DNA of 64,000 bases, from IMG/VR virus record IMGVR_UViG_3300028591_000080, positions 159,745 through 223,744 of that record; one strand, written 5' to 3'. This DNA is from a virus (taxonomy: Duplodnaviria > Heunggongvirae > Uroviricota > Caudoviricetes). Under the pieces are notes generated by a model that saw only the letters and a program-made list of their open reading frames with translations, was not told the DNA's origin and made no database searches. Shown in pieces: positions 5,472-52,435 of the stretch. Both the position numbers and the translations under genes were made by a program. How positions within the stretch are numbered: the stretch's first letter is position 1; each line of letters opens with the position of its first letter.

Positions 5472-5484
5472 AACTAATTCTCTC

Positions 5485-30131: not shown

Positions 30132-31148
30132 TTAATTTTCATTAGTTGGTTCATATGAATCTCCTTCTTTTTTAATAGTTACAGTTTGAACATCCATCCA
30201 CTTAGGACGCTTTGGTTCTTTTTCTACTAGTTTCTTTCCATTAGAATAACAAATACCATCTTCAATAACTAATACATTTACTTGCTTACTCCAAGCCGTT
30301 GTAGCATCTATGGCAATTAAATTTTTACCAAAGTAAATATCTGAGTTATCTGTAAAGTCATATAAATAATGTTCATTAAACTCAGAGCAACGATAGTGAC
30401 CACAAACTAATATTTTATCATTCTTAAGTTCTTGATTAAATAATCCTGCATCAAAGAACTTATATGGACAACCCCATGCTGCAACACTCCACTCTTTTGT
30501 AGTTGCATTACGCCAATCCGGTCTTTCTTTAAACATTTGGGTCCAAGCATAATATACACAATAATCCTCAGTTAAGCCACGTTCACTTTCCCAAGTTAAT
30601 GGAATGAACGAATGTACAAAGATATACTTACCTAATTCATAATAATTAATCCAACGATCTGATTTTAACCACTTAGTAACTTCAGAATTCTTTACAGCCT
30701 TTTTAATTTTATTCCATAAATCTTCTAGTGTCCAAACATCATCACTATAATGATGTCTAACAAAATGAAAATGCTTAGGATCATATTTTAAATCATAAGG
30801 AGCTTTATCTATTATATCCATATCATTTAATTCAGAACCTGCAATATGACAGAATGTTCTAACTGTTCCATTACTAAAATCATGGCTTTGTGGAAAATCT
30901 TTATTTAGTAAATCAAAATATAATTGTTCATGATTACCACGAATTAAAATACATCTATCTTCTGGTATTGACTTTAAAAAATTATAAACTTCAGCAGTTT
31001 CATCGCCTCTATCAAAAACGTCTCCACATACAATTAAGATATGTTCAGGATTTTCTTTATCATATCCATTATCTTTTAAAGCATTTTTCATAATAGAAGC
31101 AAAGCTATGAATATCGGAAATAACAAAATATTTCTTCATTGTAATCAC
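30132..31148 (-). CDS. PPP-family metallophosphoesterase (calcineurin-like; ApaH/PrpE or Pnkp-phosphatase-like)
   Basis: ISDIHS, CGDVFDRG and RGNHE signature motifs. Confidence 0.65.
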   Translation of the reverse strand: MITMKKYFVISDIHSFASIMKNALKDNGYDKENPEHILIVCGDVFDRGDETAEVYNFLKSIPEDRCILIRGNHEQLYFDLLNKDFPQSHDFSNGTVRTFCHIAGSELNDMDIIDKAPYDLKYDPKHFHFVRHHYSDDVWTLEDLWNKIKKAVKNSEVTKWLKSDRWINYYELGKYIFVHSFIPLTWESERGLTEDYCVYYAWTQMFKERPDWRNATTKEWSVAAWGCPYKFFDAGLFNQELKNDKILVCGHYRCSEFNEHYLYDFTDNSDIYFGKNLIAIDATTAWSKQVNVLVIEDGICYSNGKKLVEKEPKRPKWMDVQTVTIKKEGDSYEPTNEN

Positions 31149-31213: not shown

Positions 31214-32785
31214 TTAGTCCTTCTTAGTTGTAGAAGGCTTCTTTGTTGTAGGTGATTCCTTAACTTCGAAAGCATCATTCTTTACTGAGTTAGAAATTAG
31301 CTTTCCACCTAAAGTACCTACCAATAATGACTTAATATCTAAGCCAGTTGCTTGTTCAAGACCAGCGAAGATTTGAGTACCGTTCTTAGTAATTTCTTCA
31401 TTAAGCTTTGCAGTATTGCCTTCACCATACATTGTAATATTACCAATATGAGACATAGCTTCAGCCATAGGCTTAGAGTATGCTTCAACAACCTTAGGTA
31501 ATACATCAGATTCTAGAATCATCTTTAATGTAGCAGCTTCACCATATTGCTTCATCGCATCAGCTTTCTTTAAGATAGCTTCAGCTTCAGCCTTACCTTT
31601 AGCTTCAATACCTTCAGCTTCAGCAAGTGCAGCTTGCTTCTTAGCTTCAGCTTCTGCAACCATTGCTTCCTTCTTAGCATTAGCTTCGATAATTTGAGCT
31701 TCAGCAGCTTGTTGACGAGCAGCTTTTTCTGCAGCAGCCTTAACCTTAGCCATTTCAGCTTGACGTTGTGCTTCTGCTAATTCAGCTTCAGCAGCCTTAG
31801 TTCTCTTGTAAAGATCCGCATCAGCAGCCATTTGTGCAGCATACTTTTCAGCATCAGCTTTCTTATTAACTTCAGCTTGTAATCTCTTTTCAGTTAATTC
31901 AACTTCTTGAATTCCTAATTGAACTTCTCTTTGACGCTTAGAAATCTCAGCATTAATTGTTGCAGTATTAATAATTTCTTGTTGCTTTTGTTGTTGAATC
32001 TTATAAGCAGCATCTGCATCAGCTCTTGCTGTATCAGACTTTTGCTTTAATGAAGCAGCTCTTAATTCATATTCAGTATTTTGCTGAATGATTGTTGTAT
32101 CAGACTTAACCTTAGCTTCATTTGCATCTTGTCTAGCTTGTGCTTGAGCAATGTTTACATCTCTATCAGCATTTGCTTTAGCAATAGCAGCATCCTTAGA
32201 GATTTGAGCGATGTTATCGATACCTAAGTTTTCAATAACACTATTGTCATCAGTAAAGTTTTGAATATTAAAGTTTACTACTTCGATACCAATTGCAGCC
32301 ATATCTGGAGTAACATTTTCCTTAACCTTATCAGCAATACCTTTACGATCTTGAACCATATCTCTAATCTTAGATGCACCAACGATTTCACGAATATTAC
32401 CTTCAAGTACTTGGATAACTTGATCTTCAATATCTTTCTTAGACTTATTTAATAATGATTCTGCAGCTCGTTGTAACATTTCTGGAGTAGAACCAATTTT
32501 AATATTTGCAACGGCATCTACATTAACATTAATGAATTCATTTGTAGGAACTGAATTTCTAGTCTTAATATCAATAGACATTAAAGATAATGATAACTTA
32601 TCAACTCTCTCAAAGAAAGGAATTCTAAAACCTGCCTTACCAACAAGTACACGTTGTCTACGAGGACCTGTGATAATAACAGCCGTATCTGTTGGAGCCT
32701 TAGTATATCCTGCTGCTAAGAATATAATTAATAAGAATAAAAGCGCTCCGGCGATACTTAAACCAATTATTAAACCTAAATTCAT
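31214..32785 (-). CDS. flotillin-like SPFH/band-7 membrane protein with long Ala/Glu/Lys coiled coil
   Basis: N-terminal TM helix, SPFH core (VIITGPRRQRVLVGKAGFRIPFFERV), then a roughly 200-aa AEAK-rich coiled coil. Confidence 0.65.
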   Translation of the reverse strand: MNLGLIIGLSIAGALLFLLIIFLAAGYTKAPTDTAVIITGPRRQRVLVGKAGFRIPFFERVDKLSLSLMSIDIKTRNSVPTNEFINVNVDAVANIKIGSTPEMLQRAAESLLNKSKKDIEDQVIQVLEGNIREIVGASKIRDMVQDRKGIADKVKENVTPDMAAIGIEVVNFNIQNFTDDNSVIENLGIDNIAQISKDAAIAKANADRDVNIAQAQARQDANEAKVKSDTTIIQQNTEYELRAASLKQKSDTARADADAAYKIQQQKQQEIINTATINAEISKRQREVQLGIQEVELTEKRLQAEVNKKADAEKYAAQMAADADLYKRTKAAEAELAEAQRQAEMAKVKAAAEKAARQQAAEAQIIEANAKKEAMVAEAEAKKQAALAEAEGIEAKGKAEAEAILKKADAMKQYGEAATLKMILESDVLPKVVEAYSKPMAEAMSHIGNITMYGEGNTAKLNEEITKNGTQIFAGLEQATGLDIKSLLVGTLGGKLISNSVKNDAFEVKESPTTKKPSTTKKD

Positions 32786-32880: not shown

Positions 32881-34002
32881 TTAATTGAACTCTAGTTTAA
32901 TTGCATATAAGATTGTATTTGTTGTAGACTTTCGGATAATATGTTCACCAGCTTGGAAGTTTAGTATGGTTACAATTCCATTTTCATCAACTGTTTTCTT
33001 TACGTTATCAACAACAATTGCTTTTGCTGGAGTAACATGTAATGTCAATGTAGATTCAGCACCAGTTTCAAAAGTTACCATTGAGAATCTTGTATCAGAA
33101 CCTTCCATCTTTAAACCTGTTGTATAATTAGTTCCATCGATAGTTATTGGATTATTTTCATAAGAACCATGAGCGATAAATTTATTATCTGATGGAGCTT
33201 GATTGAATGTACAAATTGTATCAGTATCAATCTTTACGCTACGTTCAATTTCTATTTCATTCATCCTTTCAATACAATTTATTAGTTTATCATGATTTGA
33301 AATTCGTGCATGAACATATTCCCAAGCAGCAGTTGTAACTGCATCTAATTGATCAACATATTCATAAGTTAAATTATCTGGATCTGGTAATGCATTAATT
33401 AAATTATATACAGCTTGAGCTTCAGTGTCTTCACTTTGTTCTGGAGCATAGGTTCCAGTTACACCTAAAATACTTACACCTTCTTTAATATTTTCAGCTT
33501 TAATTGCTGAGTCAATAGCACTTGTTACAGCTTTAACCGTTACAGTTCCTAATCCATCATAATTCTTATCAAATGTTATTTCTTGGTTATTTAATGTAGG
33601 ATTAACAGTTTTATCTTGAAGAACAACTTCAGCAGGTACTGGCTGAACTCCTGAATCCTTTACAACCTCCCAACCATCTTCATCATAAATATAGGCTTTA
33701 CTTTTATCTATTTCAACAAATATAGAACCTAATCCAATATTATATTGATTACCTATCTTAGTTGGTTTTTCATCTGTACTTAATCCAAAGAAACAAAAAA
33801 CATCACGAGCGATAGGAGTATAGAAATCAAGAATTGGACCTGTGTACTTAATCCACTCACTTGTTTCTTCATTAAAAAAATATCTATCTTGAGTATCTGT
33901 TTCAAACACCATAGAACCAGTTTTAATATTTTTAGTTGGTTTAATGTCTTGTGATGTTAAATTATAACCATTAACACCTTCTTGAGGAACATATCTAATC
34001 AT
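32881..34002 (-). CDS. hypothetical protein (373 aa)
   Basis: ORF. Confidence 0.5.
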   Translation of the reverse strand: MIRYVPQEGVNGYNLTSQDIKPTKNIKTGSMVFETDTQDRYFFNEETSEWIKYTGPILDFYTPIARDVFCFFGLSTDEKPTKIGNQYNIGLGSIFVEIDKSKAYIYDEDGWEVVKDSGVQPVPAEVVLQDKTVNPTLNNQEITFDKNYDGLGTVTVKAVTSAIDSAIKAENIKEGVSILGVTGTYAPEQSEDTEAQAVYNLINALPDPDNLTYEYVDQLDAVTTAAWEYVHARISNHDKLINCIERMNEIEIERSVKIDTDTICTFNQAPSDNKFIAHGSYENNPITIDGTNYTTGLKMEGSDTRFSMVTFETGAESTLTLHVTPAKAIVVDNVKKTVDENGIVTILNFQAGEHIIRKSTTNTILYAIKLEFN

Positions 34003-35213: not shown

Positions 35214-35660
35214 TTAATTTTCTTCATTTGCTTTTACCTCCACAAATATCTTAGAAATAACTTCCTTATGTAATTTGATATTTATATCATGCTTGCCGAA
35301 TGTTTTAATATTATCCATCATGATTTGCTTAGACTCAAGTCCTGGAACTATTTTAATTAATTCTGGCATTAAGTCTTTCTTAGTCACAGCTTTATTAGCT
35401 GAACCATCTGGCATTGGCTTTCTATAGAATGTAAAAACCTTACCTTTTAATTGATCATCTTGCTCCCAACACATTTGTAAGAAATCATTAGCTTCATCTT
35501 GTGCTCTATCAATATCTCTTTGTCTCTTAGCAAGATTTAATTCTGTAGCAGGTTCTGCTTTACCTTGAGTGATTAAGAAATTAGCATAGCCATTTGCAAA
35601 TTCCTTTATATCTAATGCTTTACCTTTACCTTTGACATCTTGTGTTAAAATTACTTTCAT
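35214..35660 (-). CDS. hypothetical protein (148 aa)
   Basis: ORF. Confidence 0.45.
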
Positions 35661-37237: not shown

Positions 37238-37564
37238 TTAGTCCTCCTCTAAAGCATATAACTTATAACCATCATCAGTTTGCGCTATCTTGAATCTTCT
37301 ATTATACTCTGGTACATTATCAAATTCTAAATCACAATTAGTAGCAAAATCACAAGTTCGATTATATACATTTTCACAACAAATTAGTCTTGCGTCTTCT
37401 ATTGGACCGAGATTAGCTGAGGCTTTTCTAATAGGATTTTTATATTGTTTGCCTTTTTTACTTACAATATAATCTGTACTTCCTGTTTCAAACCAACACA
37501 CAAGTAATCTTCCACCACAAACTGGACATATAAAATCTAATTGTTTCATAATTAGTTCCTCCAA
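37238..37564 (-). CDS. zinc-ribbon protein (108 aa)
   Basis: CPVCGG ... CCENVYNRTCDFATNC cysteine pairs. Confidence 0.45.
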   Translation of the reverse strand: MEELIMKQLDFICPVCGGRLLVCWFETGSTDYIVSKKGKQYKNPIRKASANLGPIEDARLICCENVYNRTCDFATNCDLEFDNVPEYNRRFKIAQTDDGYKLYALEED

Positions 37565-37654
37565 TTATTAATAATCATATTGACTATCATCTTTACATTA
37601 TATTATACAACAAAAAAGAACGCTTTTGGCGTCCTTTAAGAGAAAATATGAAAA

Positions 37655-38218
37655 TTATTCAAAATATTTCTTAACAATAATTTGGCAGTCTCTCATAACT
37701 GTTAATGCGGCTTCATGAGCTTCAGGAGATAAACCTGCACATAAGTCATCATAAACATATACATCGATTTCTGGAAGTAAAGACTTAAGAATTAATGCAT
37801 TACTAATTACACAAATATCTGTACAAGTTCCTACAAGATTAATTCTCTTTACATCTGCAAGACCGTAATAGAAGTGTTCGTAGATAACTTCTTTCCAACG
37901 ATCCATGCTCATACCAAACGAAGGCTTAGTAACTAAGAAGCCATAACGAGAAGCTTCTAATAATTCCTTAACTACCTTATGTCCATCAGTTCCTTGAATA
38001 CAATGAGGAATAGGTAAGAACTTTCCTTCTCTTGAAGCCATATATCCTTGTTGGTGAGTATCTTGTGTAAATACTACAACTTCACCTCTTGCTTCAGATT
38101 CTTTAATAAATTGTACCATTGGTTTAACGATTGCTTGTGCAGCTGGATTAGCTAAGCTACCAGTTACAAAATCATTTTGCATATCAATGATAATTGTTAA
38201 TGTCTTATTATTTTCCAT
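37655..38218 (-). CDS. pncA: nicotinamidase (isochorismatase family, PncA)
   Basis: TLTIIIDMQNDF, catalytic Cys in VGTCTDICV; likely start MENNKT directly after the pncB stop (the track ORF has a spurious N-terminal extension). Confidence 0.7.
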   Translation of the reverse strand: MENNKTLTIIIDMQNDFVTGSLANPAAQAIVKPMVQFIKESEARGEVVVFTQDTHQQGYMASREGKFLPIPHCIQGTDGHKVVKELLEASRYGFLVTKPSFGMSMDRWKEVIYEHFYYGLADVKRINLVGTCTDICVISNALILKSLLPEIDVYVYDDLCAGLSPEAHEAALTVMRDCQIIVKKYFE

Positions 38219-38220
38219 AA

Positions 38221-39474
38221 TTAAGCCTCCTCGTTTTCTAATCTCCAGTTGATTGCATCCTTTAGATGAACTGTATATGCTGGATCTGGACATAATGTTT
38301 TACCCTTATCATCAGATACCTTTGCAACTGGCTTACCATTTACATATTGTAATTTCATAACAATATTTAATGGTCTGACAGTAGAGTCATTTGTAATGAA
38401 GGTACCAATACCCGCAGCAAATTTCATACGACCATCTACATAGTTATAGATTTCTAAACACTTATCAAAGTCATAAGAGTTAGATACTAAGAATGTTTTA
38501 GTCTTTGGATCAACACCTTCAGCTTCATAAGCCTTAACAAAGTTATCAATATGTTCGTGGTCATCGCCAGAGTCTGTTCTAACACCCATAAATTGTCTCA
38601 TGAATAATCTCTTGAATCCTCTTAAGAATAACTTAGTTGTTAATGTATCTGTTAATGCAATACCTAAGTCACCTTCAAATGTTTCTAGCCATTCTTGTAA
38701 TGCAGCTTCTACTGAATATGCTACTTGAATTCCTTTAACACCTTGGAATAGCATTGTATATTCATGAGCGAATGTTCCGATAGGAGTAACACCATATTTC
38801 ATAGCTAAATAGATATTTGAAGTACCACTAAAGATTCCAGATTCACAACCATTAGCTACGATAAAATCTTGAAGCTCTGGTAAGTTTCTACGTCTTGTAC
38901 CAAATTCTGCGATCTTACCTTTAAGTGGCTCATACTTTCCACCTTTTTCAAAACCAGCAGCCTTTGCAGCCCAACGCTTAATTCCTTCATTATAAATATT
39001 ATCATAAGTATCATTAAATAAATTCCATACATAAGATACAATTGATAAAGTATAGATTTCAAATTGAGATACAATATATACTGGACCTTCAGCTTCGATA
39101 TGTAAATCTCCATTTTCATCTAATTCAAATCTAGTTAAATATCTTAAATCTAATGTAAGGTGTCTTAATAATTCTAATGCACCTTTATGTTTTCTTAAGT
39201 GACGAATATTCTTTAAGTAATCAAGCTCAGCATCTGTCCAGTGTAATGTTGCTAAGTGTTCAAACTGTCTCTTTATTTCTCTGAACATTTCTGGAGTGAA
39301 CTTTGCATCCTTTGTTCTATTAACAAAGATATACTTTGTGATATCATTTGCATGATGTTCTAATTGAGGAATAAACATATATACTTTATAAGCATCCTCT
39401 TCAGATAAATAATGGATAGCATAACCATCTTTGTAATTAATAGGGCACTTTAACCCAGCTTCTGTAATTTTCAT
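38221..39474 (-). CDS. pncB: nicotinate phosphoribosyltransferase (PncB)
   Basis: Collinear with E. coli PncB: EFGTRRR, GTSN, TPIGTFAHEY, LGIALTD, RTDSGD, KPLNIVMKL, NGKPVAKVSDDKGKTLC. Confidence 0.85.
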   Translation of the reverse strand: MKITEAGLKCPINYKDGYAIHYLSEEDAYKVYMFIPQLEHHANDITKYIFVNRTKDAKFTPEMFREIKRQFEHLATLHWTDAELDYLKNIRHLRKHKGALELLRHLTLDLRYLTRFELDENGDLHIEAEGPVYIVSQFEIYTLSIVSYVWNLFNDTYDNIYNEGIKRWAAKAAGFEKGGKYEPLKGKIAEFGTRRRNLPELQDFIVANGCESGIFSGTSNIYLAMKYGVTPIGTFAHEYTMLFQGVKGIQVAYSVEAALQEWLETFEGDLGIALTDTLTTKLFLRGFKRLFMRQFMGVRTDSGDDHEHIDNFVKAYEAEGVDPKTKTFLVSNSYDFDKCLEIYNYVDGRMKFAAGIGTFITNDSTVRPLNIVMKLQYVNGKPVAKVSDDKGKTLCPDPAYTVHLKDAINWRLENEEA

Positions 39475-39564
39475 ATTTTAATTCTCCTTAATTATTTATT
39501 TAATATAGTCATCTTGACTATTATATTATACAATAAAATTTAGGAAATTTTATTCTTAATTTCC

Positions 39565-40080
39565 TTAAATCTTAATTAATTCTTGAACATTGCCTTTTAA
39601 ATTAAATATTATATAATTCTCATTGTCCCAGCAATTAGTAATATGGACAATCGAATCCCAGTCTGCTTCGCTTGGATTAGGAAATTCCATTCTATGCCAA
39701 TCTTTAATTAATTTATCTTCAGGCATTGTTCTATATCTATTTTTATTACCTTCTAAACATTTTTCGAGTGGAGCTGTGACCCAAAGTAAATGATGCTTGA
39801 AAGTTGGAAACCATTCAATTAATTGCCTACGTTGAGCAACAGTTAATGCATTAGTAGTTAATAATACATCATGGTCTTCCAATTCTACTTCATGTAGAAC
39901 TTTAAATAATAAATGCCAAACCTCAAAACTATTTTTATGGATTCGCTCATCACCATTTATTAATTTATAAAAATCATCAACGTCATAAAAAACTATATTA
40001 GGATTTTTACCGATTATTCTTTTACTTAATACAGTTTTTCCACCACCTGATATTCCACATACTAAATAGAAATTAGCCAT
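39565..40080 (-). CDS. P-loop nucleotide/nucleoside kinase-like protein
   Basis: Walker A GISGGGKT at the N-terminus; 171 aa; substrate unknown (nicotinamide-riboside or polynucleotide kinase are options). Confidence 0.45.
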   Translation of the reverse strand: MANFYLVCGISGGGKTVLSKRIIGKNPNIVFYDVDDFYKLINGDERIHKNSFEVWHLLFKVLHEVELEDHDVLLTTNALTVAQRRQLIEWFPTFKHHLLWVTAPLEKCLEGNKNRYRTMPEDKLIKDWHRMEFPNPSEADWDSIVHITNCWDNENYIIFNLKGNVQELIKI

Positions 40081-40505
40081 TATAACACCTCAAAATAGTT
40101 TAAAAACTTAGTTATATCTAAATAATATTCATGACCTTCTTTTATATCCTCATCAGAATATTTTAAAACTTTAATTGCATTATCAGAAAGTCTTGCATCA
40201 AAATTTTTATGAATCCAATCATATACATAGGTATTTGCATTATTCCAAATATAAACTAATTGCTTTGGAAGGCCATACTTTTTAAATAGTTCAGTCACTA
40301 AATATTTCATAGTCAATCTTCCATAACCTTGATGCTGATAATTCTTATTAGCATACCATTGAGAGATTGTCCACTTATTATTTGTGTCAACGCTTATTGT
40401 GCACTTACAAATATATTCATTTAAAAATTCTTCTGTAAGTAAACTTTCATAAACAAAAGTTAACTTAGAATTATTTATTAATTTGTAAGTTAACACAATA
40501 ACCAC
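40080..40505 (-). CDS. GNAT-family N-acetyltransferase
   Basis: QHQGYGRL acetyl-CoA-binding motif. Confidence 0.5.
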   Translation of the reverse strand: MVIVLTYKLINNSKLTFVYESLLTEEFLNEYICKCTISVDTNNKWTISQWYANKNYQHQGYGRLTMKYLVTELFKKYGLPKQLVYIWNNANTYVYDWIHKNFDARLSDNAIKVLKYSDEDIKEGHEYYLDITKFLNYFEVL

Positions 40506-41225
40506 CTACTTTAATCTATACACTTTACTAGGTCTCTTAGAAAATTCTGTACTTTCTAATCCATCAATAACTTCTAATCGATCACCATATCTTTTCAAGA
40601 TGTCTCTTCTAAAATTAGCTAAGCCGATTTTCTTATTTAAAATAGCTTCATATACTAATTTTAATTCATATAATGTAAATGATTTTTTTGATTTTAAAAA
40701 TTCAAAAGCAATATCTGTATAATCTAATTTTCCTTGTAATCTTTTTACTGTATCTTCAATGATTTGTTTATGATCAAAAGCCATAGAACAATTAAATGTA
40801 AATGGACATACCCATCCACTATTAGTTTCAGCTTTAGATTCTTCTGGTAAATAACACATAGCATTTACTGGTAGGATAGAATAATAAACTACTGATATAA
40901 CTCTTGTTCTTGGATCTCTATCTACTGCACCATAAGTATATAATTGTTCAATATGAATTTTATCTGGATCTAAATTTGGATAAGTTATTTTATCTTTTAA
41001 TTTAAATCTAACATTATCCTCTAAAGAAAGATTAGGCTGAACAAATCCTCCAGGAATTTGTAGCATGTCTTTAAATGGATAATCTTTTCTTTTAGTTACT
41101 AAAACTTCTAATTTATAAGAATTACCTAATTGATGCATACTTAAGATTACAACGTCTGTTGCAATAGATGGTCTATCCTTAAATTCATTAACATTATAAT
41201 CTTTTAAAAAGTCTTGTTCAGTCAT
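40506..41225 (-). CDS. Nudix-fold protein with C-terminal winged helix, NrtR-like (ADP-ribose-responsive regulator family)
   Basis: Nudix-like N-domain (GGFV), C-terminal blocks MAFDHKQII, FTLYELKLVYEAIL, NFRRDI that I recall as NrtR signatures. Confidence 0.45.
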   Translation of the reverse strand: MTEQDFLKDYNVNEFKDRPSIATDVVILSMHQLGNSYKLEVLVTKRKDYPFKDMLQIPGGFVQPNLSLEDNVRFKLKDKITYPNLDPDKIHIEQLYTYGAVDRDPRTRVISVVYYSILPVNAMCYLPEESKAETNSGWVCPFTFNCSMAFDHKQIIEDTVKRLQGKLDYTDIAFEFLKSKKSFTLYELKLVYEAILNKKIGLANFRRDILKRYGDRLEVIDGLESTEFSKRPSKVYRLK

Positions 41226-41235
41226 AACCTAACTC

Positions 41236-42375
41236 CTAACCTACTATACTTAAAATACTTAAATAACCTAACAATCCTGAAGCTGTTAAATAGATTTGAT
41301 TATTTTTAATTAAAGAATTTAGTTCGTCTAAAGAATAAACTTTAATCTTAATATCTTCTGTTGCTTCTAAATGTTGTTTACCGATTGAAGATAGTTTTAC
41401 AACAGCCATATAGTTTGCTTCATCACACATACCAGCACACATTGATAAAGGATAGTTTTGAAGTAATGTAATCTTTTCAACCTTACCACCAACTTCTTCA
41501 TAAACTTCTCTTTCAATAGCTTTATTAACATCTTCATTATTTTCAATTAATCCAGCAACGAATGAATTTACATATCTTCCTAAAGCACTACGGAATTCTT
41601 CAATCATAACAACTTTAATTTCCATAGTCTCTGGATCTACATAATAAGTAAATGCTTCAATAGCTGTTGGCTTAACCATATCATGATTGATTGCTAAATC
41701 CTTCATATTATTTCTTGATACAAAGAAATAATCTCTAGGCTGATTATTAGTCATATAGTGAGCCGTATAGAACTTTAAAAATTTCTTATCTAAATTTAAA
41801 TCTACAGATAATAATGTTTGATTTTCTGATTTAACAATAGGTTTAATTTTTAAAGTTTTTATCCAATTAAATGCTCTAATAATTGTATCAGCATGCTTTT
41901 CTGGATTTGAATTAGTTTCAACAAAGTCTTGACCTTTCATAGCTAACTTAGATTGAATAACTACATCTTGTTCTCTACTATAACCTTGTTCTACACTAAC
42001 AGTAATTCTATTCATATAATCATTTGGAAATCTTACTTCCATCTTTGCTAAATTTCTTCCTAATTCATACATACAGATAGGTTGAACGGATTTAGGACTA
42101 TTTGCAAAATACATTGAGAAAATATCCATTTGTTCTAACATATTAAATTCCCAAGTTATTTGTTCATTAGAAGCATTAGGATCATGAATAGGGAAGTTTT
42201 TACGTCTTGGATTGAATAATACTAATCCAGTTAAATCAACGTCAACGTTCTCTAAATAATTAATTACTTCATCTTGCCATTCACCACAATCTGTGATACC
42301 TCCAGCTAAGAAACAAGTAATTTCTCCTGGCTTCTTTTCATATTTTTCTACAGCTGTAATTACTTTTATATTCAT
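41236..42375 (-). CDS. Nudix hydrolase (ADP-ribose pyrophosphatase-like) fused to an N-terminal Rossmann-like (nucleoside deoxyribosyltransferase/LOG-like) domain
   Basis: Complete Nudix box AGLIENNEDVNKAIEREVYEEVGG; N-terminal FLAGGITDCGEW resembles YLAGP-type Rossmann folds. Confidence 0.55.
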   Translation of the reverse strand: MNIKVITAVEKYEKKPGEITCFLAGGITDCGEWQDEVINYLENVDVDLTGLVLFNPRRKNFPIHDPNASNEQITWEFNMLEQMDIFSMYFANSPKSVQPICMYELGRNLAKMEVRFPNDYMNRITVSVEQGYSREQDVVIQSKLAMKGQDFVETNSNPEKHADTIIRAFNWIKTLKIKPIVKSENQTLLSVDLNLDKKFLKFYTAHYMTNNQPRDYFFVSRNNMKDLAINHDMVKPTAIEAFTYYVDPETMEIKVVMIEEFRSALGRYVNSFVAGLIENNEDVNKAIEREVYEEVGGKVEKITLLQNYPLSMCAGMCDEANYMAVVKLSSIGKQHLEATEDIKIKVYSLDELNSLIKNNQIYLTASGLLGYLSILSIVG

Positions 42376-42376
42376 A

Positions 42377-43360
42377 TTAATTTTTACTCCTCTTTAATTC
42401 TGATATTTCTAAAGCTTGTTCAACAACTAAAGCTTTAAGTCTTTCAACTTCATGTTCTAATGCATGGTACTTTTCTGCTGGAACGTCTGCCTCTTTTACT
42501 GCACTTATCTTCATACAAAGACTACTATCATCAACTTTATCTGCAATGCGCTTAGAATCTCCAATTGATGTTAATGAATCACTACCAGCAATTTGAACAA
42601 GACTGCCATAAGGAAGACCTTCATCTAAAAGATAATTTAAACCTTTTTTAATTTCACAATCTGATTTATTAAATAGTTCTGGAACTATTCCATGCTTACT
42701 CATCCACTCTCTAGCAGCTTTAGGACCAGCTAAAATCTTTCGATCTAATTTAAATCTAGGTTCATAATCTGATGGTGGTAATGCTTCTCTCCAGCAAGTA
42801 TTTAAAATTCTAGCTATCTCAACACCACTTGAATTTGATTTAGATTCTACTAAAATAAAATCACGTTTATTTTTAAGTCTATCTTCTTCAAGATTTAATA
42901 ATTCAGCTTCTCTAGCTGGAACCATAATAAATCTCTTAGACCAATCATCATATTTCTTTTTATTTAAATATTCAAAGTATACACATAAATAATTCTTTTC
43001 AATAGGATCAATTACCTCAATACCAGTACGAGCTATATACTGATAGTTTTGTTTTTCAATATACCATAAACCACCTTGAGCTCTTGGATTTAACCACTTA
43101 CTTCCATCATCATTATAACAACAGAACTTACGAGTAATGTGGATTCTAATACTATTTGATACTTTATCATTAAATGTATATTTATAGCTTCCATTTAGTT
43201 CAGAAATACCATAAGTATCATCTTCGAATATCTCAGCTTCAAAAATAGTTGATGGATCTAAATTAGGAAAGTATGTTAAAAAACCTCTAATTCTTTTTGC
43301 TTTAATTAAAATTGGAAATCTAAATTTCATATTGTTCACCTCATATATAATAATATACAA
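42377..43360 (-). CDS. hypothetical protein (327 aa)
   Basis: ORF inside the NAD island; no motif recognised. Confidence 0.5.
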   Translation of the reverse strand: MYIIIYEVNNMKFRFPILIKAKRIRGFLTYFPNLDPSTIFEAEIFEDDTYGISELNGSYKYTFNDKVSNSIRIHITRKFCCYNDDGSKWLNPRAQGGLWYIEKQNYQYIARTGIEVIDPIEKNYLCVYFEYLNKKKYDDWSKRFIMVPAREAELLNLEEDRLKNKRDFILVESKSNSSGVEIARILNTCWREALPPSDYEPRFKLDRKILAGPKAAREWMSKHGIVPELFNKSDCEIKKGLNYLLDEGLPYGSLVQIAGSDSLTSIGDSKRIADKVDDSSLCMKISAVKEADVPAEKYHALEHEVERLKALVVEQALEISELKRSKN

Positions 43361-43368
43361 TATGACTA

Positions 43369-43851
43369 TTAATAAATCTCATTTGTTAATAAATAACTTA
43401 TTAAATAATCATAAGCCATTTGTGCTGCATACTCTCTAACTTTTTCTCTATCATCATTAAATATTTGATATTCAAATCCACCAGCTTGAGTCATATTATT
43501 ATATTTTTTAATTAATAAACTAACATAGAATTTTCCAGCTGGAGTTCCACGATTAGAACCAGGTCCAGCTACACCAGAAATTGCCACTGCGATATTAGCA
43601 CCAGTTAATTCTAAAAGACCATCACACATTTGACGTGTTGTTTGACTATTATAAGGTCCATATCTAACTAAGAAATCTGAATCAACATTTAATACTTTAG
43701 ATTTAATTTCATCTGTATAAGATGTGACAGAACCTAGATAAACAGAACTTATTCCAGGTTCTTCACAAATCTTTGCAGATAACTTTCCACCAGTTAAAGA
43801 TTCAGCTACAGCTAACTTAAGGTTATATTTTTCCAACAATTCTTTTAGCAT
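43369..43851 (-). CDS. CinA C-terminal domain protein (PncC-type NMN deamidase family)
   Basis: LAVAESLTGGKLSAKI matches the CinA_C signature. Confidence 0.6.
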   Translation of the reverse strand: MLKELLEKYNLKLAVAESLTGGKLSAKICEEPGISSVYLGSVTSYTDEIKSKVLNVDSDFLVRYGPYNSQTTRQMCDGLLELTGANIAVAISGVAGPGSNRGTPAGKFYVSLLIKKYNNMTQAGGFEYQIFNDDREKVREYAAQMAYDYLISYLLTNEIY

Positions 43852-44648
43852 TAAATCTTCACCTCTAAATCATCAGGTTCATACTTAGGCATTAGTACTA
43901 ACTTATGTAAATTAGCTCTGTGCATTCTATCAATCTTTTCTTTATGTTCTAGATTTTCAATAACACCAGTTCGAATATAAGTATCTAATTCATCATAAGT
44001 AAATCCTAACTTCTCTTCATCAGACTTACCACTCATTCCATCGCTAGGAACTTTTTCAATTAAATCCTTTGGTAAACCTAATTCATAACCTAATTCTTTA
44101 ACTTCATGAACAGTTAAATTTGCAAGTGGTGAAAAGTCTCCTGCACTATCTCCATACTTAGTTGAATAACCAACCCAGTCCTCAGATAAATTACAAGTAT
44201 TGGCTACTCTTGCATTACCAAGAATTGCTGCAACTCCGTATAAAGTTGTCATACGAATTCTTGCTGGAGTATTAGTTTCATATACATCATTAAACTTTGT
44301 TGCATAATTAGTTATATAACTTGAGCAAGTTCTATTTATTCTATGTCTAGACTTAAATCCTTCAAATATTGATTGTCTTAACATTAAAGTAGCATAACCA
44401 ATATTTATACAAGTATAATCAATACCTAAATGCTTAACTAATTCTAATGATTTATCAATATCCTTTTGTTCACCATCTGGCATTAATACGCCAAATACTT
44501 TATCCTTACCAAGTGCTTCCACACATAAAGCAGCACAAACTGAACTATCTTTGCCACCACTAATTCCAATAACAACTGTACAATCACCTACAGTCTTTCT
44601 AACCCATTCAACTAAATCTTCTTTACATTTCTTTGCATTAAATTCCAT
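43851..44648 (-). CDS. nadE: NH3-dependent NAD+ synthetase
   Basis: PP-loop GISGGKDSSV; 265 aa, NadE-sized. Confidence 0.8.
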   Translation of the reverse strand: MEFNAKKCKEDLVEWVRKTVGDCTVVIGISGGKDSSVCAALCVEALGKDKVFGVLMPDGEQKDIDKSLELVKHLGIDYTCINIGYATLMLRQSIFEGFKSRHRINRTCSSYITNYATKFNDVYETNTPARIRMTTLYGVAAILGNARVANTCNLSEDWVGYSTKYGDSAGDFSPLANLTVHEVKELGYELGLPKDLIEKVPSDGMSGKSDEEKLGFTYDELDTYIRTGVIENLEHKEKIDRMHRANLHKLVLMPKYEPDDLEVKI

Positions 44649-44678
44649 ATTGTTCTCCTTTAAACTCTTTTAATTTAT

Positions 44679-45227
44679 TTATACCTTTCTAAATATACTA
44701 TCGTCTGCTGGTTCAAAATCTGGTTGCCAACTTCTTTTAGTAACTGTCCATGAATAATTAGTTATAGTTGGAATAGTTTTTTCTTCAATTAAATTATCAA
44801 AAACATATAACCTATTATCTCTAGAACTAAATCTTGAGTAATCTTTCATTTTATAAAAAGCTTCTACATCTGCTTTAGTTTTAATCGATATATTATAACC
44901 ATCAATATCATTACTATAAGTTATATAATTTCTACGGCAAAAATCATATAATTCTAAAGCATTTGTATATACATAAACCTTTTTAATGTTAGGATATCTC
45001 TTTTTATAATAAGATGTAATTTTTTCAGGATTAGTAAACTCAAAAGGTTCACCACCAGTTAGGCAAAGCACTTCGCATTGTTTTAACTCTTCATCTGTAA
45101 CATAAGGAATATCATCTAAACTATATTGCTTATTACAACAATGAGGACAATTTCTTAAACACAAACTTGTTACCATTAAGTGGATAACTCTTTTAGTTTT
45201 ATTAGTATATTCATTTAACTTACTCAT
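44679..45227 (-). CDS. small radical SAM protein (QueE/NrdG-like activase)
   Basis: CLRNCPHC (C-x3-C-x2-C) near the N-terminus and GGEP motif. Confidence 0.5.
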   Translation of the reverse strand: MSKLNEYTNKTKRVIHLMVTSLCLRNCPHCCNKQYSLDDIPYVTDEELKQCEVLCLTGGEPFEFTNPEKITSYYKKRYPNIKKVYVYTNALELYDFCRRNYITYSNDIDGYNISIKTKADVEAFYKMKDYSRFSSRDNRLYVFDNLIEEKTIPTITNYSWTVTKRSWQPDFEPADDSIFRKV

Positions 45228-45318
45228 GATTTATTCTCCTTAGTCATTTATTTTAGCAAATTATAAATAGTCATTTTGACTATTATATTATACAATAAAA
45301 AATAGAATTTTTCGAATT

Positions 45319-47475: not shown

Positions 47476-48765
47476 TTAACTTGTATGTTCGACATTATAT
47501 CTTGTAGTTTGATCACTTGCAAATTTAATTAAATCTTCCTTATTATTTTTTAAGATTCCACTATAAACTTCAATTAATGTCATCTCTAATGCAGTTCTAA
47601 TTTGTTTTCCTTTATAACCTAAAGCAATCATATCATTACCATCAACTGCTAATTGATTTAAAGAATAACAACCGCTTTCAAATACTAAATTAATAACTTC
47701 TGTTGAATTAAAATAATATCTGTTAATAGCGTCAATAAATACAAAAGCATCTTGAATTTCAAGTAATTTTCTTACTAGCCATTCAGCATCTTTATTAGAA
47801 TAACCATATGTATCAACTAATCTATGACCTAAAGCTCCAACACTGTCTGAGTCATCAAGATTAACCTTTCTAACTTCTCTACTTAATACTTTAATTAATT
47901 TTGTATCTTTTGTTGAAAATTTTAAACGAGTTAAAATAGCTTCAGTTTGTTCAGGAGTTAAGTATGAACAAATTCCAATAAAGTTATCAACATAATGATC
48001 AGTCACAAGCTTAAATAATTGCTTATTTAAGTACTTAAATTCAGGAATAATATGATAAATAATAGCACCAGGCATAAATCCTTGCATTAAATCACCAACA
48101 GTCTCATAATCAAAGATTCTAATAATCTCATCATGGATTCTTTCTGCAGAAATACTATCTAATAAATCTTCTTGGAAAAACATTGCGTACATAGTTCCAT
48201 TCTCAATATGGAAATTATACTTGCATGCAAATCTAAGACCACGCAAGATTCTTAGAGCATCCTCTTTAAATCTTTCTTTAGGGTCTCCAACTGCACGAAC
48301 AATACCTTCTTTTAGGTCCTTTAATCCACCAAATGGGTCAATTACAGTATCACCGCTGTTATATGCCATCGCGTTGATAGTAAAGTCACGTCTAGCTAAA
48401 TCTTTTACAATATCTTTAGTAAATTCAACAGATTCAGGGTGTCTATTATCTTTATATTCGCCATCAATACGATATGTAGTGATTTCAATATTCTCTTCAT
48501 TGTATCTAACTGTTACAGTTCCGTGCTTTTCTCCATTGTTATTAATGATAGGATAATCTTTAAATACTTCTTTAATTTCATCAGGAGTCGCATTAGTAGT
48601 TAAGTCAATATCTTTAATTGAATGACCTAATAAAAGGTCCCTTACCGCTCCGCCGACAATATAAGCTTCATATCCAGCAGTTTCAAGTTTATTAAAAACA
48701 AATTGTACAATATCTTTTTGCTTAGCTGTAAGTAAATCAAATAAATTATTTGACACTTTAATCAC
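47476..48765 (-). CDS. cca: tRNA nucleotidyltransferase (CCA-adding enzyme)
   Basis: Pol-beta-type head YIVGGAVRDLLLG ... DIDL ... RDFTINAMAY; 429 aa. Confidence 0.75.
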   Translation of the reverse strand: MIKVSNNLFDLLTAKQKDIVQFVFNKLETAGYEAYIVGGAVRDLLLGHSIKDIDLTTNATPDEIKEVFKDYPIINNNGEKHGTVTVRYNEENIEITTYRIDGEYKDNRHPESVEFTKDIVKDLARRDFTINAMAYNSGDTVIDPFGGLKDLKEGIVRAVGDPKERFKEDALRILRGLRFACKYNFHIENGTMYAMFFQEDLLDSISAERIHDEIIRIFDYETVGDLMQGFMPGAIIYHIIPEFKYLNKQLFKLVTDHYVDNFIGICSYLTPEQTEAILTRLKFSTKDTKLIKVLSREVRKVNLDDSDSVGALGHRLVDTYGYSNKDAEWLVRKLLEIQDAFVFIDAINRYYFNSTEVINLVFESGCYSLNQLAVDGNDMIALGYKGKQIRTALEMTLIEVYSGILKNNKEDLIKFASDQTTRYNVEHTS

Positions 48766-49546
48766 CTTCTTTTAAATAATATTTTTTAAAGCGTAATAAA
48801 CTTTCATTTGTAAAAGTTATTTGTCCTGCTTTATATAACTCAACTATAAAAGGACGAGTTAACTGTTTAAAATCTTTGTTTGAAAATAAAACATATTCTA
48901 GATTATTATTTGAACAGTAGGTTTCAGCCGCTTGCTTTTTTAATAAAACAACCTCTGAACTTAACTCTCTAAAATCTTTAATCTCATATAAATATTTATT
49001 ATCGACCAAAAAGTCTGGTCTATATTGATGGATAGTTCCACTGGTATCACTATAATAAATGGTCATAGTTTCTGCTGATTTAATTGTATGATTTTCATTT
49101 AACATTTTATAGATAAATGATAATTCAACAAGAGACCTAAATAGATATCCAGAATACCAACCAGCATAACCACGACCATTAACTGGGTTATCTTCAGTAA
49201 ATTTATGTGGATTATTTATTCCTTTTGCAAAATAATGATGATTAGCTTTTCAATCATCACTCTTAAAACGTTCTGTCAAAGACTTACCTAATTGTTTCTT
49301 ATTATATTCTGCCCAAGTATAAGTACGTATACCTTTTTGATAATCTTCATGTTGACGACAGCCTCTACATAGGTCTCTATCATCTCTTTTTTTAAAATTT
49401 AATTGTTGTGAATGATAATTTATCTTATAAATTTTACCGCATACATCACATCTAACTTCGATAATATCACCAGTACTAAATCCTACCCTTCCTTTTTTAA
49501 ATCCATGTGCACCTGCTTGTAATATTCTTGGTTTACTAAGTATCAT
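48758..49546 (-). CDS. zinc-finger plus PD-(D/E)xK nuclease-domain protein (homing-endonuclease-like), about 262 aa, with one in-frame TGA
   Basis: Track ORFs 49250..49546 and 48758..49105 share a frame, separated only by TGA; N-terminal CDVCGK...CRGCRQ, C-terminal YRPDFLVDNKYLYEIKDF (PD...EIK). Confidence 0.55.
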
Positions 49547-52036: not shown

Positions 52037-52435
52037 CTACTCACTCTTATCCTCTTTTAGCCACCAAGTTTTCTTATAGTCCTTTAAATATAAAACATAG
52101 GTTGCTACATCATAAACACCATAGTGTTGTTTAATTTCAAAATTACCATCTATAAATACTGGTTTTGCAAAATATAATTGATGCCAATCATCCATAATAT
52201 ATATTCCATCAAATGCTTTGAAAAACACATTTAATGGACAACCTAGTTTATCTTGTAAATCGACAACCTCTTTAATAGTTTCTAATGCATCAACCATCTC
52301 ATATGCATCTTTGCAAAAGTCTTCATCATGAGTATCTTTATAAGCATCAAAAAAATTAGAATTACCACTACTATTTAAGCAGCATAAGTTATCTATTTTA
52401 TTATAAGCTAATTTTAAATCCATTCTATTCACCAT
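52037..52435 (-). CDS. hypothetical protein (132 aa)
   Basis: ORF. Confidence 0.45.
   Translation of the reverse strand: MVNRMDLKLAYNKIDNLCCLNSSGNSNFFDAYKDTHDEDFCKDAYEMVDALETIKEVVDLQDKLGCPLNVFFKAFDGIYIMDDWHQLYFAKPVFIDGNFEIKQHYGVYDVATYVLYLKDYKKTWWLKEDKSE

Follow-up and report, generated by a model that had tools for sequence, protein, structure and literature searches.

A predicted NrtR-controlled NAD+ salvage gene cluster in a gut jumbo phage

Three phage pathways of NAD+ resynthesis, NARP1 (Adps and Namat), NARP2 (NadV/Nampt and NMNAT) and NARP3 (PnuC and a NadR-like protein), overcome NAD+-depleting defence experimentally, according to the portions of the literature available to us. The deamidated route, which the preliminary description of the present locus had contrasted with the mainly amidated routes of published phage pathways, has precedents. 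Annotated examples of such clusters exist in other giant phages, among them Bacillus phage G (NC_023719), where gp273–gp283 comprise an NrtR-like protein (gp273), an isochorismatase (gp275), a NAPRTase (gp277), a NaMN adenylyltransferase (gp281) and an NAD synthetase (gp283). Gut jumbo phages with clustered pncB, nadD and nadE, termed NAD-jumbo phages, carry Preiss-Handler clusters, and the accessible part of the same paper ties phage NAD+ metabolism to counter-defence via encoded NAD+-consuming enzymes (Li et al., 2024, Microbiome, PMC11662467). For bacterial NrtR regulons, an operator core of GT-N7-AC has been published (Rodionov et al., 2008; PMC2330246), and ADP-ribose releases NrtR proteins from DNA in vitro (PMC2330246; PMC6800001).

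The DNA analysed here (the window, 64 kb) harbours a genuine gene cluster for regenerating NAD+ from nicotinamide via the nicotinate route, in a gut phage of about 240 kb. Nine ORFs, all on the minus strand like every feature located below, occupy 37655–44648. These coordinates, given in the preliminary description as the limits of the island, hold for the ORFs, but the regulated unit is wider and runs from 37,571 to 45,295. Upstream it takes in a radical-SAM-like gene (44679–45227) with promoter and operator 1 (45267–45295), and downstream it extends to operator 3 (37571–37587). The core of NadE, PncC, an orphan, NrtR, a kinase and PncB is conserved across two relatives, L002 and L003. Of all the features found here, the NrtR repressor with its operators is the most telling.

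HMM annotation assigned families to all ORFs except the orphan, and for the four salvage enzymes the Pfam and NCBIfam models and the signature motifs agree with the earlier assignments. NadE (43851–44648, 265 aa) is an NH3-dependent NAD+ synthetase without a glutaminase domain (Pfam NAD_synthase, 170 bits; TIGR00552, 166 against a cut-off of 63.65). It carries GISGGKDSS, and the catalytic motif SGGxDS is conserved on alignment to 2e18. PncB (38221–39474; NAPRTase_N and NAPRTase) is an E. coli-type nicotinate phosphoribosyltransferase. Its collinearity with E. coli PncB, noted previously, is borne out over residues 19–414 by TIGR01514 (296.9; cut-off 269.55), and the catalytic motifs FGTRRR, GTFAHEY (the phospho-His position), DSGD and GIGT are present on alignment to P. 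aeruginosa PncB (1yir). PncA (Pfam isochorismatase) is a nicotinamidase of 187 aa starting with MENNK; gene callers place its start at 38218 within an ORF of 37655–38293, so that the gene spans 37655–38218. Alignment to the pyrazinamidase/nicotinamidase 1ilw shows the motifs IIIDMQNDF, QDTH, PHCIQGT, the conserved Lys and TDIC. The fourth protein (43369–43851, 160 aa) is a stand-alone PncC/CinA C-terminal domain (PF02464, E = 2e-36; TIGR00199, 110.7 against a cut-off of 68.9) and a candidate NMN deamidase.

The enzyme assignments uphold the chemistry proposed earlier, from nicotinamide to nicotinate, NaMN, NaAD and NAD+. The reported absence of a NaMN adenylyltransferase from the window is also confirmed: its six frames contain no (H/T)xGH nucleotidyltransferase motif, and Pfam scans of about 60 window ORFs gave no match to CTP_transf_like. 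Neither the window nor ∼17 kb of flanks yielded a NadD or an NMNAT, which leaves the pathway as encoded incomplete. Adenylylation of NaMN must be supplied by the host NadD or by a gene elsewhere in the phage genome. A PRPP synthetase is not encoded in the window, and both a host enzyme and the host's own PRPP supply would limit flux through the island.

Two Nudix proteins had been listed. Both have Nudix domains, but one is a regulator and the other an enzyme fusion. The regulator (40506–41225) is an NrtR-family repressor with a Nudix-like sensor domain and a winged-helix DNA-binding domain (PF21906, E = 6e-11; NF050029, E = 1e-29, under its cut-off), and it matches Shewanella NrtR (3gz5) over its full length (E = 2e-20). 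Its Nudix box is degenerate, with RFKLKD replacing REuxEE; the alignment shows the box degenerate also in phage-lineage relatives and intact in the closest bacterial homologues. As a counterpoint on the effector, the family member AraR (5bs6) senses arabinose. The fusion (41236–42375) joins a nucleoside 2-deoxyribosyltransferase-like N-terminal part (Nuc_deoxyri_tr2) to a C-terminal NUDIX domain of the ADP-ribose-pyrophosphatase type. The earlier assignment of this activity is consistent with an intact Nudix box (GLIENNEDVNKAIEREVYEEVGG) and with best PDB matches to Nudix proteins and ADP-ribose pyrophosphatases. Its position is a variable slot, filled in L002 and L003 by a DUF5662 gene.

A palindrome, ATAGTCA-N3-TGACTAT, agrees with the published NrtR core. 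Because it follows a generic phage promoter at three places, the sequence divides the island into three regulated, co-oriented transcription units. Promoter P1 (TTGTATAATATAAT, 45282–45295), preceded by an AT-rich hairpin that resembles a terminator and belongs to the gene upstream, overlaps box O1, an exact palindrome (ATAGTCAAAATGACTAT in minus-strand letters, 45267–45283). It heads unit 1, made up of the radical-SAM-like gene, NadE, PncC, the orphan, the fusion, NrtR, a GNAT and the kinase. P2 (39520–39533) lies after a hairpin, overlaps the exact palindrome O2 (39505–39521) and heads unit 2, PncB and PncA. A terminator hairpin (37615–37637) sits ahead of P3 (37597–37610), which with box O3 (37571–37587, one mismatch) heads a unit of small unknown genes (37238–37564 and onward). 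Boxes with at most one mismatch number three in 64 kb against 0.02 expected, all at island promoters, and some 20 further copies of the generic promoter in the window are without a box. O1 and O2 are kept at the same positions in L002 and L003, and at the position of O3 L002 has an exact box. Across diverged relatives the positions are conserved and the arms invariant, with a variable spacer; the box was not found in the other loci examined (L004–L014). Ahead of the orphan gene, at 43347–43369, a box half-site, ATAGTCA, adjoins a degenerate version of the promoter motif. The sequence there is identical in L002 and L003 and is possibly a weak internal promoter. The same box stands upstream of bacterial nrtR-pncA-pncB(-nadD-nadE) operons. 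Of 80 bacterial NrtR loci, 12 carry it, all from Lachnospiraceae, with 13 sites where 0.05 would be expected, and its position upstream of nrtR-pncA-pncB in these genomes points to that clade as the probable host.

Conservation within the island is highest for the gene of an AAA_33 P-loop kinase (39565–40080), which is 93%–99% identical at the amino acid level to its counterparts in L002 and L003. Many of its 120 homologues lie on contigs of 0.2–0.5 Mb. One, in L011/L012, adjoins PnuC and two NadR-type NMNATs, and in one lineage a homologue stands outside an NAD context. The protein is a candidate nicotinamide-riboside kinase, with polynucleotide 5′-kinase as the alternative. The best folds for its AF2 model (pLDDT 95) are C. 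thermocellum polynucleotide kinase, gluconate kinase and PSTK (TM ∼0.63); the nearest solved folds are polynucleotide kinases, not nicotinamide riboside kinase. The orphan, Unk317 (42377–43330, 317 aa; start placed by gene callers within an ORF of 42377–43360), had no match in Pfam, NCBIfam, PHROG or PDB. Nine homologues were identified, and a search of 1.84 billion representatives gave six clusters; the N-terminal part is β-rich and fast-evolving, and a C-terminal coiled coil of ∼40 aa is almost invariant. Comparison with NMNATs shows no relation. A small GNAT-like acetyltransferase (40080–40505) matches Acetyltransf_1 weakly (24 bits; cut-off 20.7), and its gene is absent from L002 and L003. 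The first gene of unit 1 encodes 182 aa with a CxxxCxxC motif and matches Pfam Radical_SAM under the cut-off (E = 9e-4); fuller radical SAM/Fer4_12 genes occupy this position in relatives and in a separate lineage, L017. The model proposed here assigns no role to three island genes, namely the radical-SAM-like gene, the orphan and the GNAT.

The reading that we favour, with a probability of about 0.6, is that a jumbo phage of ∼230–300 kb carries an NrtR-controlled NAD+ salvage regulon in which resynthesis is switched on by NAD+ breakdown. By analogy with the NrtR family, the repressor made from unit 1 would bind the boxes and hold the island down, and ADP-ribose from NAD+ cleavage would free it; because the box is identical, the host NrtR may likewise repress the island. 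With activities predicted from the enzyme identities established above, PncA would convert nicotinamide to nicotinate, PncB would combine nicotinate with PRPP to give NaMN, PncC would convert NMN to NaMN and the kinase may turn nicotinamide riboside into NMN, so that all pyridine fragments would be funnelled to NaMN. This is the substrate preferred by bacterial NadD. Once NaMN had been adenylylated to NaAD by the host NadD or a phage gene outside the window, NadE would amidate the product to NAD+. The intact Nudix domain would split ADP-ribose into AMP and ribose-5-phosphate, recycling carbon, removing the inducer and resetting the switch. The net effect would be NAD+ resynthesis turned on in the infected cell during NAD+ breakdown. 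The suggestion that NAD+ is rebuilt from the exact breakdown products of NADase defences fits nicotinamide only; ADP-ribose would not be re-ligated as in NARP1. Most probably, the phage would gain an ability to withstand the loss of NAD+, be it from NADase immunity or from the infection itself. Counter-defence against NAD+-destroying immunity, the role proposed earlier, is plausible. Ordinary NAD+ homeostasis or boosting accounts for the same genes, and since this regulon also serves bacteria in everyday homeostasis, the design alone is no sign of counter-defence.

General metabolic augmentation, in which NAD+ is raised or stabilised for replication and for NAD+-consuming enzymes and NrtR provides bacterial-style homeostatic feedback, can be entertained tentatively. 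The architecture, operator included, mirrors the bacterial operons; the accessible text of Li et al. (2024; PMC11662467) reports 174 jumbo phages with NAD synthesis genes and many NAD+-consuming enzymes, and a KptA/Tpt1 NAD+-consuming RNA 2′-phosphotransferase accompanies the cluster in phage G and L017. However, the window yielded no recognisable NAD+-dependent enzyme, and its DNA ligase belongs to the ATP type. NADase effectors generate the inducer that would be predicted from the NrtR family, and phage NAD+ synthesis overcomes NADase systems in the published accounts of NARP1, NARP2 and NARP3, as far as available. The augmentation and defence-linked readings are not mutually exclusive. That the phage NrtR acts mainly on host promoters and so reprograms the NAD metabolism of the host or, conversely, that the host NrtR silences the island until ADP-ribose rises, is unlikely. 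The 17-bp box common to phage and Lachnospiraceae regulons, and a Nudix box degenerate in the phage lineage and intact in bacteria, would suit such a hijack; yet identity between phage and bacterial NrtRs is only 32%–42%, so that cross-recognition is not assured, and the three island boxes already account for the need of the phage for NrtR.

The lack of an adenylyltransferase in the window and the two conserved genes without an assigned role invite comparison with NARP1. Its Namat is presumably a phosphoribosyltransferase homologue. In the available portion of the NARP1 literature it is a nicotinamide ADP-ribose transferase using ADPR-PP, and by analogy the kinase or orphan might activate ADP-ribose for a PncB-like addition of nicotinate, giving NaAD for NadE without NadD. 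This is very improbable: PncB scores above the canonical NAPRTase equivalog cut-off, retains the phospho-His motif and shares 38% identity with Lachnospiraceae PncB, no PRPS-like Adps was found, the island encodes an enzyme that destroys ADP-ribose, NaMN from PncC would serve nothing, and related islands do encode an adenylyltransferase. The least probable reading is an ordinary cellular NAD salvage operon on a bacterial chromosome or plasmid fragment. It could draw on the absence of capsid, portal and terminase genes from the 64-kb window, on the lack of a match among 50,697 phage records by DNA or by the large helicase protein, and on the failure to find a close PncB relative in IMG/VR. With no capsid or terminase gene in the window, the phage assignment rests on context. 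A single recurrent promoter motif serves the densely packed, co-oriented genes of the 64 kb, most of which are orphans. Phage-typical genes are present (Gp88 family, DUF7487, a PHA02142-type RNA ligase, DNA ligase, dCMP deaminase and a CCA-adding enzyme), with Lar restriction-alleviation genes in relatives. Proteins identical to those of the window occur on contigs that cluster at 230–299 kb across many samples, and the GC content is 29% against 43%–61% in the box-bearing Lachnospiraceae loci.

The favoured reading, a phage-borne NrtR regulon, can be set beside the known systems. Like the window, Bacillus phage G is a jumbo phage with a co-oriented NAD cluster, and its gp273, annotated only as a MutT/NUDIX hydrolase, is a Nudix/winged-helix protein with 30% identity to the NrtR of the window. 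In contrast, phage G encodes a NaMN adenylyltransferase and a KptA-like phosphotransferase, lacks PncC, the AAA_33 kinase and the orphan in the stretch examined, and showed no recurrent palindromic operator in its cluster. In the accessible text of Li et al. (2024; PMC11662467), a complete pathway is required of NAD-jumbo phages, whereas the window is without nadD, and NrtR, its operators and PncC are not described there. Bacterial NrtR regulons (Rodionov et al., 2008; Huang et al., 2009), especially Lachnospiraceae nrtR-pncA-pncB, use the same regulator family and share the 17-bp box with GT-N7-AC, the target genes and autoregulation. The island differs in being phage-borne, with the box grafted onto a phage promoter type at three units, a degenerate Nudix signature, extra phage-specific genes and no nadD. 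Adps, Namat, NadV, NMNAT and PnuC were not found in the window, and an NrtR switch is not reported for NARP1–3 in the literature searched, as far as it was available. The island also differs from these pathways in its deamidated route through NaMN and NaAD, for which NadE is needed, and from NARP1 in that ADP-ribose would be degraded. Phage-encoded NAD+ resynthesis is common to all of them, and because homologues of the island kinase adjoin PnuC and NadR-type NMNATs, this kinase may be the counterpart of NARP3's riboside-kinase half.

The window has a GC content of 29%, and all of its substantial ORFs lie on the minus strand. Nine of them fall between 37,655 and 44,648, and for these nine the Pfam and NCBIfam profile matches agree with the gene list drawn up earlier from the sequence alone. 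NadE is of the single-domain, NH3-dependent type (TIGR00552, 166 bits; cut-off 63.65) and keeps the SGGxDS ATP-pyrophosphatase loop on alignment. The PncC/CinA C-terminal domain stands alone (TIGR00199, 110.7; cut-off 68.9). PncB, which is collinear over residues 19–414, exceeds its equivalog cut-off (TIGR01514, 296.9; cut-off 269.55), and alignment with Pseudomonas aeruginosa PncB (1yir) shows that FGTRRR, GTFAHEY (the phosphohistidine position), DSGD and GIGT are all kept. Nicotinamidases of the PncA type have an Asp-Lys-Cys catalytic triad, metal-binding Asp and His residues and an HC(V/I)xGT signature. In the PncA of the island, a member of the isochorismatase family (gene-caller start 38218), the nicotinamidase Asp, DxH, PHC(I)QGT, Lys and TDxC positions are kept on alignment with pyrazinamidase/nicotinamidase 1ilw. 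Its score against the equivalog NF008623 is only 32 bits (cut-off 174), so its substrate specificity is putative. The remaining ORFs encode a 317-aa orphan protein assigned to no family (gene-caller start 43330), a fusion of an NDT-like (nucleoside-2-deoxyribosyltransferase-like) domain with a Nudix domain (41236–42375), a Nudix protein with an NrtR winged helix (40506–41225), a weakly matching GNAT and an AAA_33 P-loop kinase (39565–40080). The catalytic residues of PncB and NadE were checked by alignment and are present. The deamidated route proposed in the preliminary description is thus upheld at the gene level by the identification of PncA, PncB, the PncC domain and NadE with their signature motifs. 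Judged by their sequences, these four genes and that of the ADP-ribose pyrophosphatase are intact. In L002, a related phage contig with the same type of island, pncA (14029–14546) is apparently split by a frameshift, with residues 1–141 and 161–187 matching in different frames; this is either gene decay or an assembly error.

The preliminary description had also listed two Nudix proteins. Both indeed carry Nudix domains, but they are not of the same kind: the state of the Nudix box, degenerate in one and intact in the other, and the different relatives of the two indicate one sensor-regulator and one enzyme. ORF 40506–41225 combines an N-terminal Nudix-like domain (PF00293) with a C-terminal winged helix (PF21906) and aligns over its full length with Shewanella NrtR (3gz5, E 2e-20), a repressor of NAD genes that responds to ADP-ribose. 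With 103 bits against NF050029 (E 1e-29; cut-off 400), it belongs to the NrtR family but is not an NF050029 equivalog. Its Nudix box is degenerate, with RFKLKD in place of REuxEE, and so are those of its phage-lineage relatives; the closest bacterial homologues have an intact box. Since AraR, of the same family, has another ligand, ADP-ribose should not be assumed to be the ligand of the phage protein. In Mycobacterium smegmatis NrtR one lysine is acetylated (PMC6800001). This residue (K166) is conserved in the alignment with the phage NrtR, and it may be speculated that the GNAT encoded next to nrtR modifies the repressor. ORF 41236–42375 has a textbook Nudix box, GX5EX7REVYEEVGG, and the solved structures that it matches best are those of Nudix proteins and of ADP-ribose pyrophosphatases. 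The NDT-like domain might, speculatively, have a nucleotide N-glycosidic bond as its target. What lies between the orphan gene and nrtR varies from contig to contig; the cassette there is this NDT-like/ADP-ribose-pyrophosphatase fusion in the window and a DUF5662 protein without a solved relative in L002 and L003, a second related contig (10897–11457).

The three gaps between genes of the island are laid out alike, and in each a hairpin is followed by a T-run, TTGTATAATATAAT and the palindrome ATAGTCA-N3-TGACTAT. With up to two mismatches, TTGTATAATATAAT matches 33 times in the window against 8.6 expected, nearly always directly upstream of a gene, and it is probably the general promoter of the phage. 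About 25 minus-strand sites were noted (for example, 7843–7856, 15710–15723 and 63007–63020), usually with a T-run or hairpin before them and GTAA after them, and the motif appears to divide the whole window into short transcription units. A generic sigma-70 scan of the window returned 55 sites against 64 expected and is uninformative in such AT-rich DNA.

The palindrome, in contrast to this general promoter, is specific to the island. It is perfect at 45267–45283, before the nadE operon, whose first gene is the radical-SAM-like one, and at 39505–39521, before pncB, and has one mismatch at 37571–37587, after pncA and before the next unit; a half-site lies before the orphan gene. Three sites with at most one mismatch compare with 0.02 expected from dinucleotide shuffles of the window. 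A near-match at 30012–30028 lies within a small ORF, has no promoter and was dismissed as chance. For most NrtR groups the operator consensus is a palindrome of ∼21 bp (PMC2330246, Rodionov et al.), placed before genes of NAD metabolism and before the operon of the regulator itself; the phage palindrome contains the core GT-N7-AC and, with its flanks, shows the 21-bp symmetry of that consensus. L002 and L003, whose proteins are 39%–99% identical to those of the window depending on the gene, carry it at the same three positions with invariant arms and different spacers (four and three sites, against 0.24 and 0.13 expected). It is absent from all other loci examined before the bacterial search, the flanks of the same phage included. 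On a bacterial contig with an nrtR-pncA-pncB-nadD-nadE operon, TATAGTCATTATGACTATA lies 53 nt upstream of nrtR, and a box with at most one mismatch is present in 12 of the 80 bacterial loci that encode the closest NrtR homologues, with 13 sites in all where 0.05 would be expected. These 12 loci are all from Lachnospiraceae, several with a GC content of 50%–61%, and in three of them the box lies 70–120 nt upstream of nrtR-pncA-pncB. The conserved positions in the relatives, together with the same box in bacterial NrtR operons, make the assignment of the palindrome as a predicted NrtR operator well supported. By its sequence the island consists of three transcription units with promoter-proximal NrtR boxes, and nrtR itself is inside the first. 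A recurrent operator was also looked for in the NAD cluster of phage G, where only terminator-like hairpins were found, and no NrtR box was seen in L017, an NAD island of a separate lineage.

A radical-SAM protein is encoded at or inside the phage NAD islands (window 44679–45227; L002 7646–8617; L003 7153–8010; L017 3082–3939), and in the window its gene is the first behind the upstream NrtR box. These proteins vary in length and show weak viperin/NrdG-like or RlmN-like similarity; we know of no role for them in NAD metabolism. Inside the L017 island, too, at 4285–6109 and 6231–6488, an IS605-type element (a resolvase-family gene and OrfB/TnpB) adjoins an 85-aa fragment of a KptA/Tpt1 RNA 2′-phosphotransferase.

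The shared operator box points to a host among the Lachnospiraceae. Some of the metagenome-assembled genomes with NrtR homologues come from run series SRR8736xx, as does one phage relative, and the record labels point to ruminant gut samples. A jumbo phage is defined by a genome above 200 kb together with phage hallmark genes. Identical island proteins occur in several collections on contigs of 230,252, 243,901, 244,932 and 298,554 bp. The surrounding genes are dense, co-oriented and mostly orphan, with one promoter type; they include an ATP-dependent DNA ligase, a PHA02142-type RNA ligase, a CCA-adding enzyme, a dCMP deaminase, a Gp88 family member, a DUF7487 protein, a helicase and a homologue of ribosomal protein L9, and Lar restriction-alleviation genes are present in relatives. 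Capsid, portal and terminase genes were found neither in the window nor in the readable flanks, and a walk outward in search of nadD or capsid genes met only small orphan ORFs. As the parts read lack capsid and terminase genes, the assignment to a phage is strongly supported but falls short of proof. Neither the island nor the large helicase has a close relative in INPHARED at the DNA or protein level, and no close relative of PncB was found in IMG/VR; a scan of IMG/VR for the promoter-operator pattern gave two matches, neither similar to the window.

Several other genes of the window deserve mention. The L9 homologue (35214–35660) is full length, with Ribosomal_L9_N and Ribosomal_L9_C domains, and is 77% identical in L002. 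A stand-alone GGDEF diguanylate-cyclase domain protein (28118–28555) and an HD_4 protein resembling RelA/SpoT-type hydrolases (52425–53024) suggest interference with host nucleotide second messengers. An SPFH/flotillin-like protein of 523 aa (31214–32785), a protein with a CBM77 carbohydrate-binding module (32881–34002), a DAHP-synthase-family protein of the DAHP/KDO8P type (23853–24893) and the dCMP deaminase (24897–25391) are also encoded. A small ORF with a Tn7 TnsA-like endonuclease N-terminal domain (48758–49105) lies directly upstream of the CCA-adding enzyme gene.

The Preiss-Handler set is incomplete in the window: PncB and NadE are present, and NaMN adenylyltransferase was not found. 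The (H/T)xGH nucleotidyltransferase motif is absent from all six frames of the 64 kb, and neither CTP_transf_like nor PnuC or PRPP-synthetase matches were obtained by Pfam among about 60 ORFs and the annotated flanks. The motif scan and the Pfam search thus agree with the initial impression that no such enzyme is obvious here. The islands of phage G, which encodes an adenylyltransferase (gp281), and L017, with an NMNAT of the NadM type, differ in this respect. Since neither the window nor its annotated flanks encode the enzyme, adenylylation would fall to the host NadD or to a gene elsewhere in the genome of roughly 240 kb. The orphan protein (42377–43330) was considered as a hidden adenylyltransferase, and this was rejected as unsupported, though it is not disproved. 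The protein has no family, PDB, PADLOC or fold match, and hhalign against NMNAT gives a probability of 0.1%. It is β-rich with a C-terminal coiled coil and belongs to a tiny family, with only six clusters in a whole-library profile search; the ORF at the equivalent position in L017 is unrelated to it. Its last ∼40 residues (KEADVPAEKYHALEHEVERLKALVVEQALEISELKRSKN) are nearly identical in all homologues, whereas the remainder is 39% identical. The corresponding DNA (42377–42499) is 85%–90% identical, the differences being apparently synonymous on inspection by eye. A closely similar KEADVPAEKYHALEHEVERLKALVVEQALEISELKRSKN-type tail ends an otherwise unrelated protein of 115 aa, and the tail looks like a portable coiled-coil module.

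The kinase gene is conserved better than any other in the island, with 93%–99% identity to relatives whose NrtR is only 53% identical, and the evidence on its role is divided. Among its 120 homologues, many on contigs of 0.2–0.5 Mb, those of another jumbo-phage lineage are flanked by PnuC and by NadR-type NMN adenylyltransferases, with PncA adjacent and PncB close by, an arrangement that amounts to a split NadR/PnuC riboside-salvage module resembling NARP3; in a third lineage the kinase has no NAD neighbors. Gene context thus points to a riboside kinase. The sequence match to NRK1 is weak (E 0.11), and the fold search with the predicted model (pLDDT 95) leads instead to polynucleotide and gluconate kinases, the closest being Clostridium thermocellum polynucleotide kinase, gluconate kinase and PSTK (TM about 0.63). 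An RNA-repair 5′-kinase is possible, because an RNA ligase, a metallophosphoesterase and a CCA-adding enzyme are encoded in the window. On balance, a nicotinamide-riboside kinase feeding NMN to PncC is somewhat favored. The RNA ligase (57273–58538), the CCA-adding enzyme (47476–48765), the calcineurin-like phosphoesterase (30132–31148) and the ATP-dependent DNA ligase (25828–27159) are a possible RNA/DNA repair set, and, joined by the AAA_33 kinase, they might make up a Pnkp-like RNA repair pathway in split form.

In the NrtR family, ADP-ribose relieves DNA binding (PMC2330246, PMC6800001). By analogy, the phage NrtR would repress the three units and ADP-ribose would lift the repression. Nicotinamide would then be deamidated and phosphoribosylated to NaMN, and NMN, perhaps also that derived from the riboside, would be deamidated to the same product; the host NadD would form NaAD and NadE would complete NAD+. 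The Nudix enzyme would split ADP-ribose into AMP and ribose-5-phosphate, so that the switch is reset. Convergence of all routes on NaMN might, speculatively, allow reliance on a host NadD that prefers this substrate. The island may be a counter-defense that senses an immune product: the phage NrtR would detect ADP-ribose released by TIR, SIR2 or other NADase effectors and act on an operator taken over from the host NAD regulon, NAD+ resynthesis and ADP-ribose clearance would be induced only under attack on NAD+, and the adenylyltransferase would be deliberately omitted, with pyridine fragments passed as NaMN to the essential host NadD. This joint reading is tentative, with a probability of roughly one in four. 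Counter-defense as such is a plausible role, given that NADase effectors produce what is expected to be the inducer, but ordinary NAD+ homeostasis or boosting also accounts for these genes. The observation in the preliminary description is confirmed and its interpretation partly supported.

Were the deamidated route shown to restore NAD+ in infection, it would mean that one step of a phage pathway can be left to an essential enzyme of the host. The regulatory result is the more useful one, as it offers a repressor with its three predicted operators and a small molecule that is a candidate for the inducer; because that molecule is the product of NADase immunity, the distinction between constitutive and immune-sensing phage countermeasures becomes directly testable. 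From the shared box a host clade, the Lachnospiraceae, can also be predicted for this lineage of uncultured jumbo phages of ruminant guts.

How phages rebuild NAD+ is a topic of present interest in the conflict between phages and bacteria. Three pathways have been shown experimentally, NARP1 and NARP2 (Osterman et al., 2024) and NARP3 (Sci Adv 2026), and all of them use amidated intermediates. The earlier statement that phage pathways are mainly amidated holds for these three, but deamidated clusters have already been annotated. In Bacillus phage G the annotated cluster comprises an NrtR-like protein, isochorismatase, NAPRTase, NaMN adenylyltransferase and NAD synthetase, and Li et al. (2024; PMC11662467) describe "NAD-jumbo phages," pncB-nadD-nadE clusters included, and link the counter-defense idea to phage-encoded NAD+-consuming enzymes. 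PncB and NadE matches also lie ∼850 bp apart in the huge phage LR756501 and 13 bp apart in MT835946. PncB is rare among catalogued phages (14 of 50,697 records). The island corresponds to none of the three demonstrated pathways. NARP1 combines a PRPS-like Adps with the ADP-ribose transferase Namat; no PRPS-like protein was found in the scanned ORFs, where the only phosphoribosyltransferase scores as a canonical NAPRTase. Neither NadV/Nampt nor an NMN adenylyltransferase, as in NARP2, was found in the window. NARP3 consists of a PnuC-like transporter and a bifunctional NadR-like kinase/adenylyltransferase; the window has only a stand-alone AAA_33 kinase, with no NMN_transporter or NMNAT, and homologues of this kinase adjoin PnuC in another lineage. 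Neither the NARP1/NARP2 preprint nor the NARP3 paper mentions PncB or NadE, nor does the latter report a phage pathway under NrtR; the literature searched contained no account of a phage NAD island regulated by NrtR. A deamidated, NadE-dependent route would be a fourth chemistry if shown to restore NAD+ in infection. Phage NAD islands of this kind are already known; the regulatory angle is new and testable. Specific to the present island are its NadD-less, PncC-containing make-up, the well-defined operators that the presumed host clade also has and its unexplained conserved genes.
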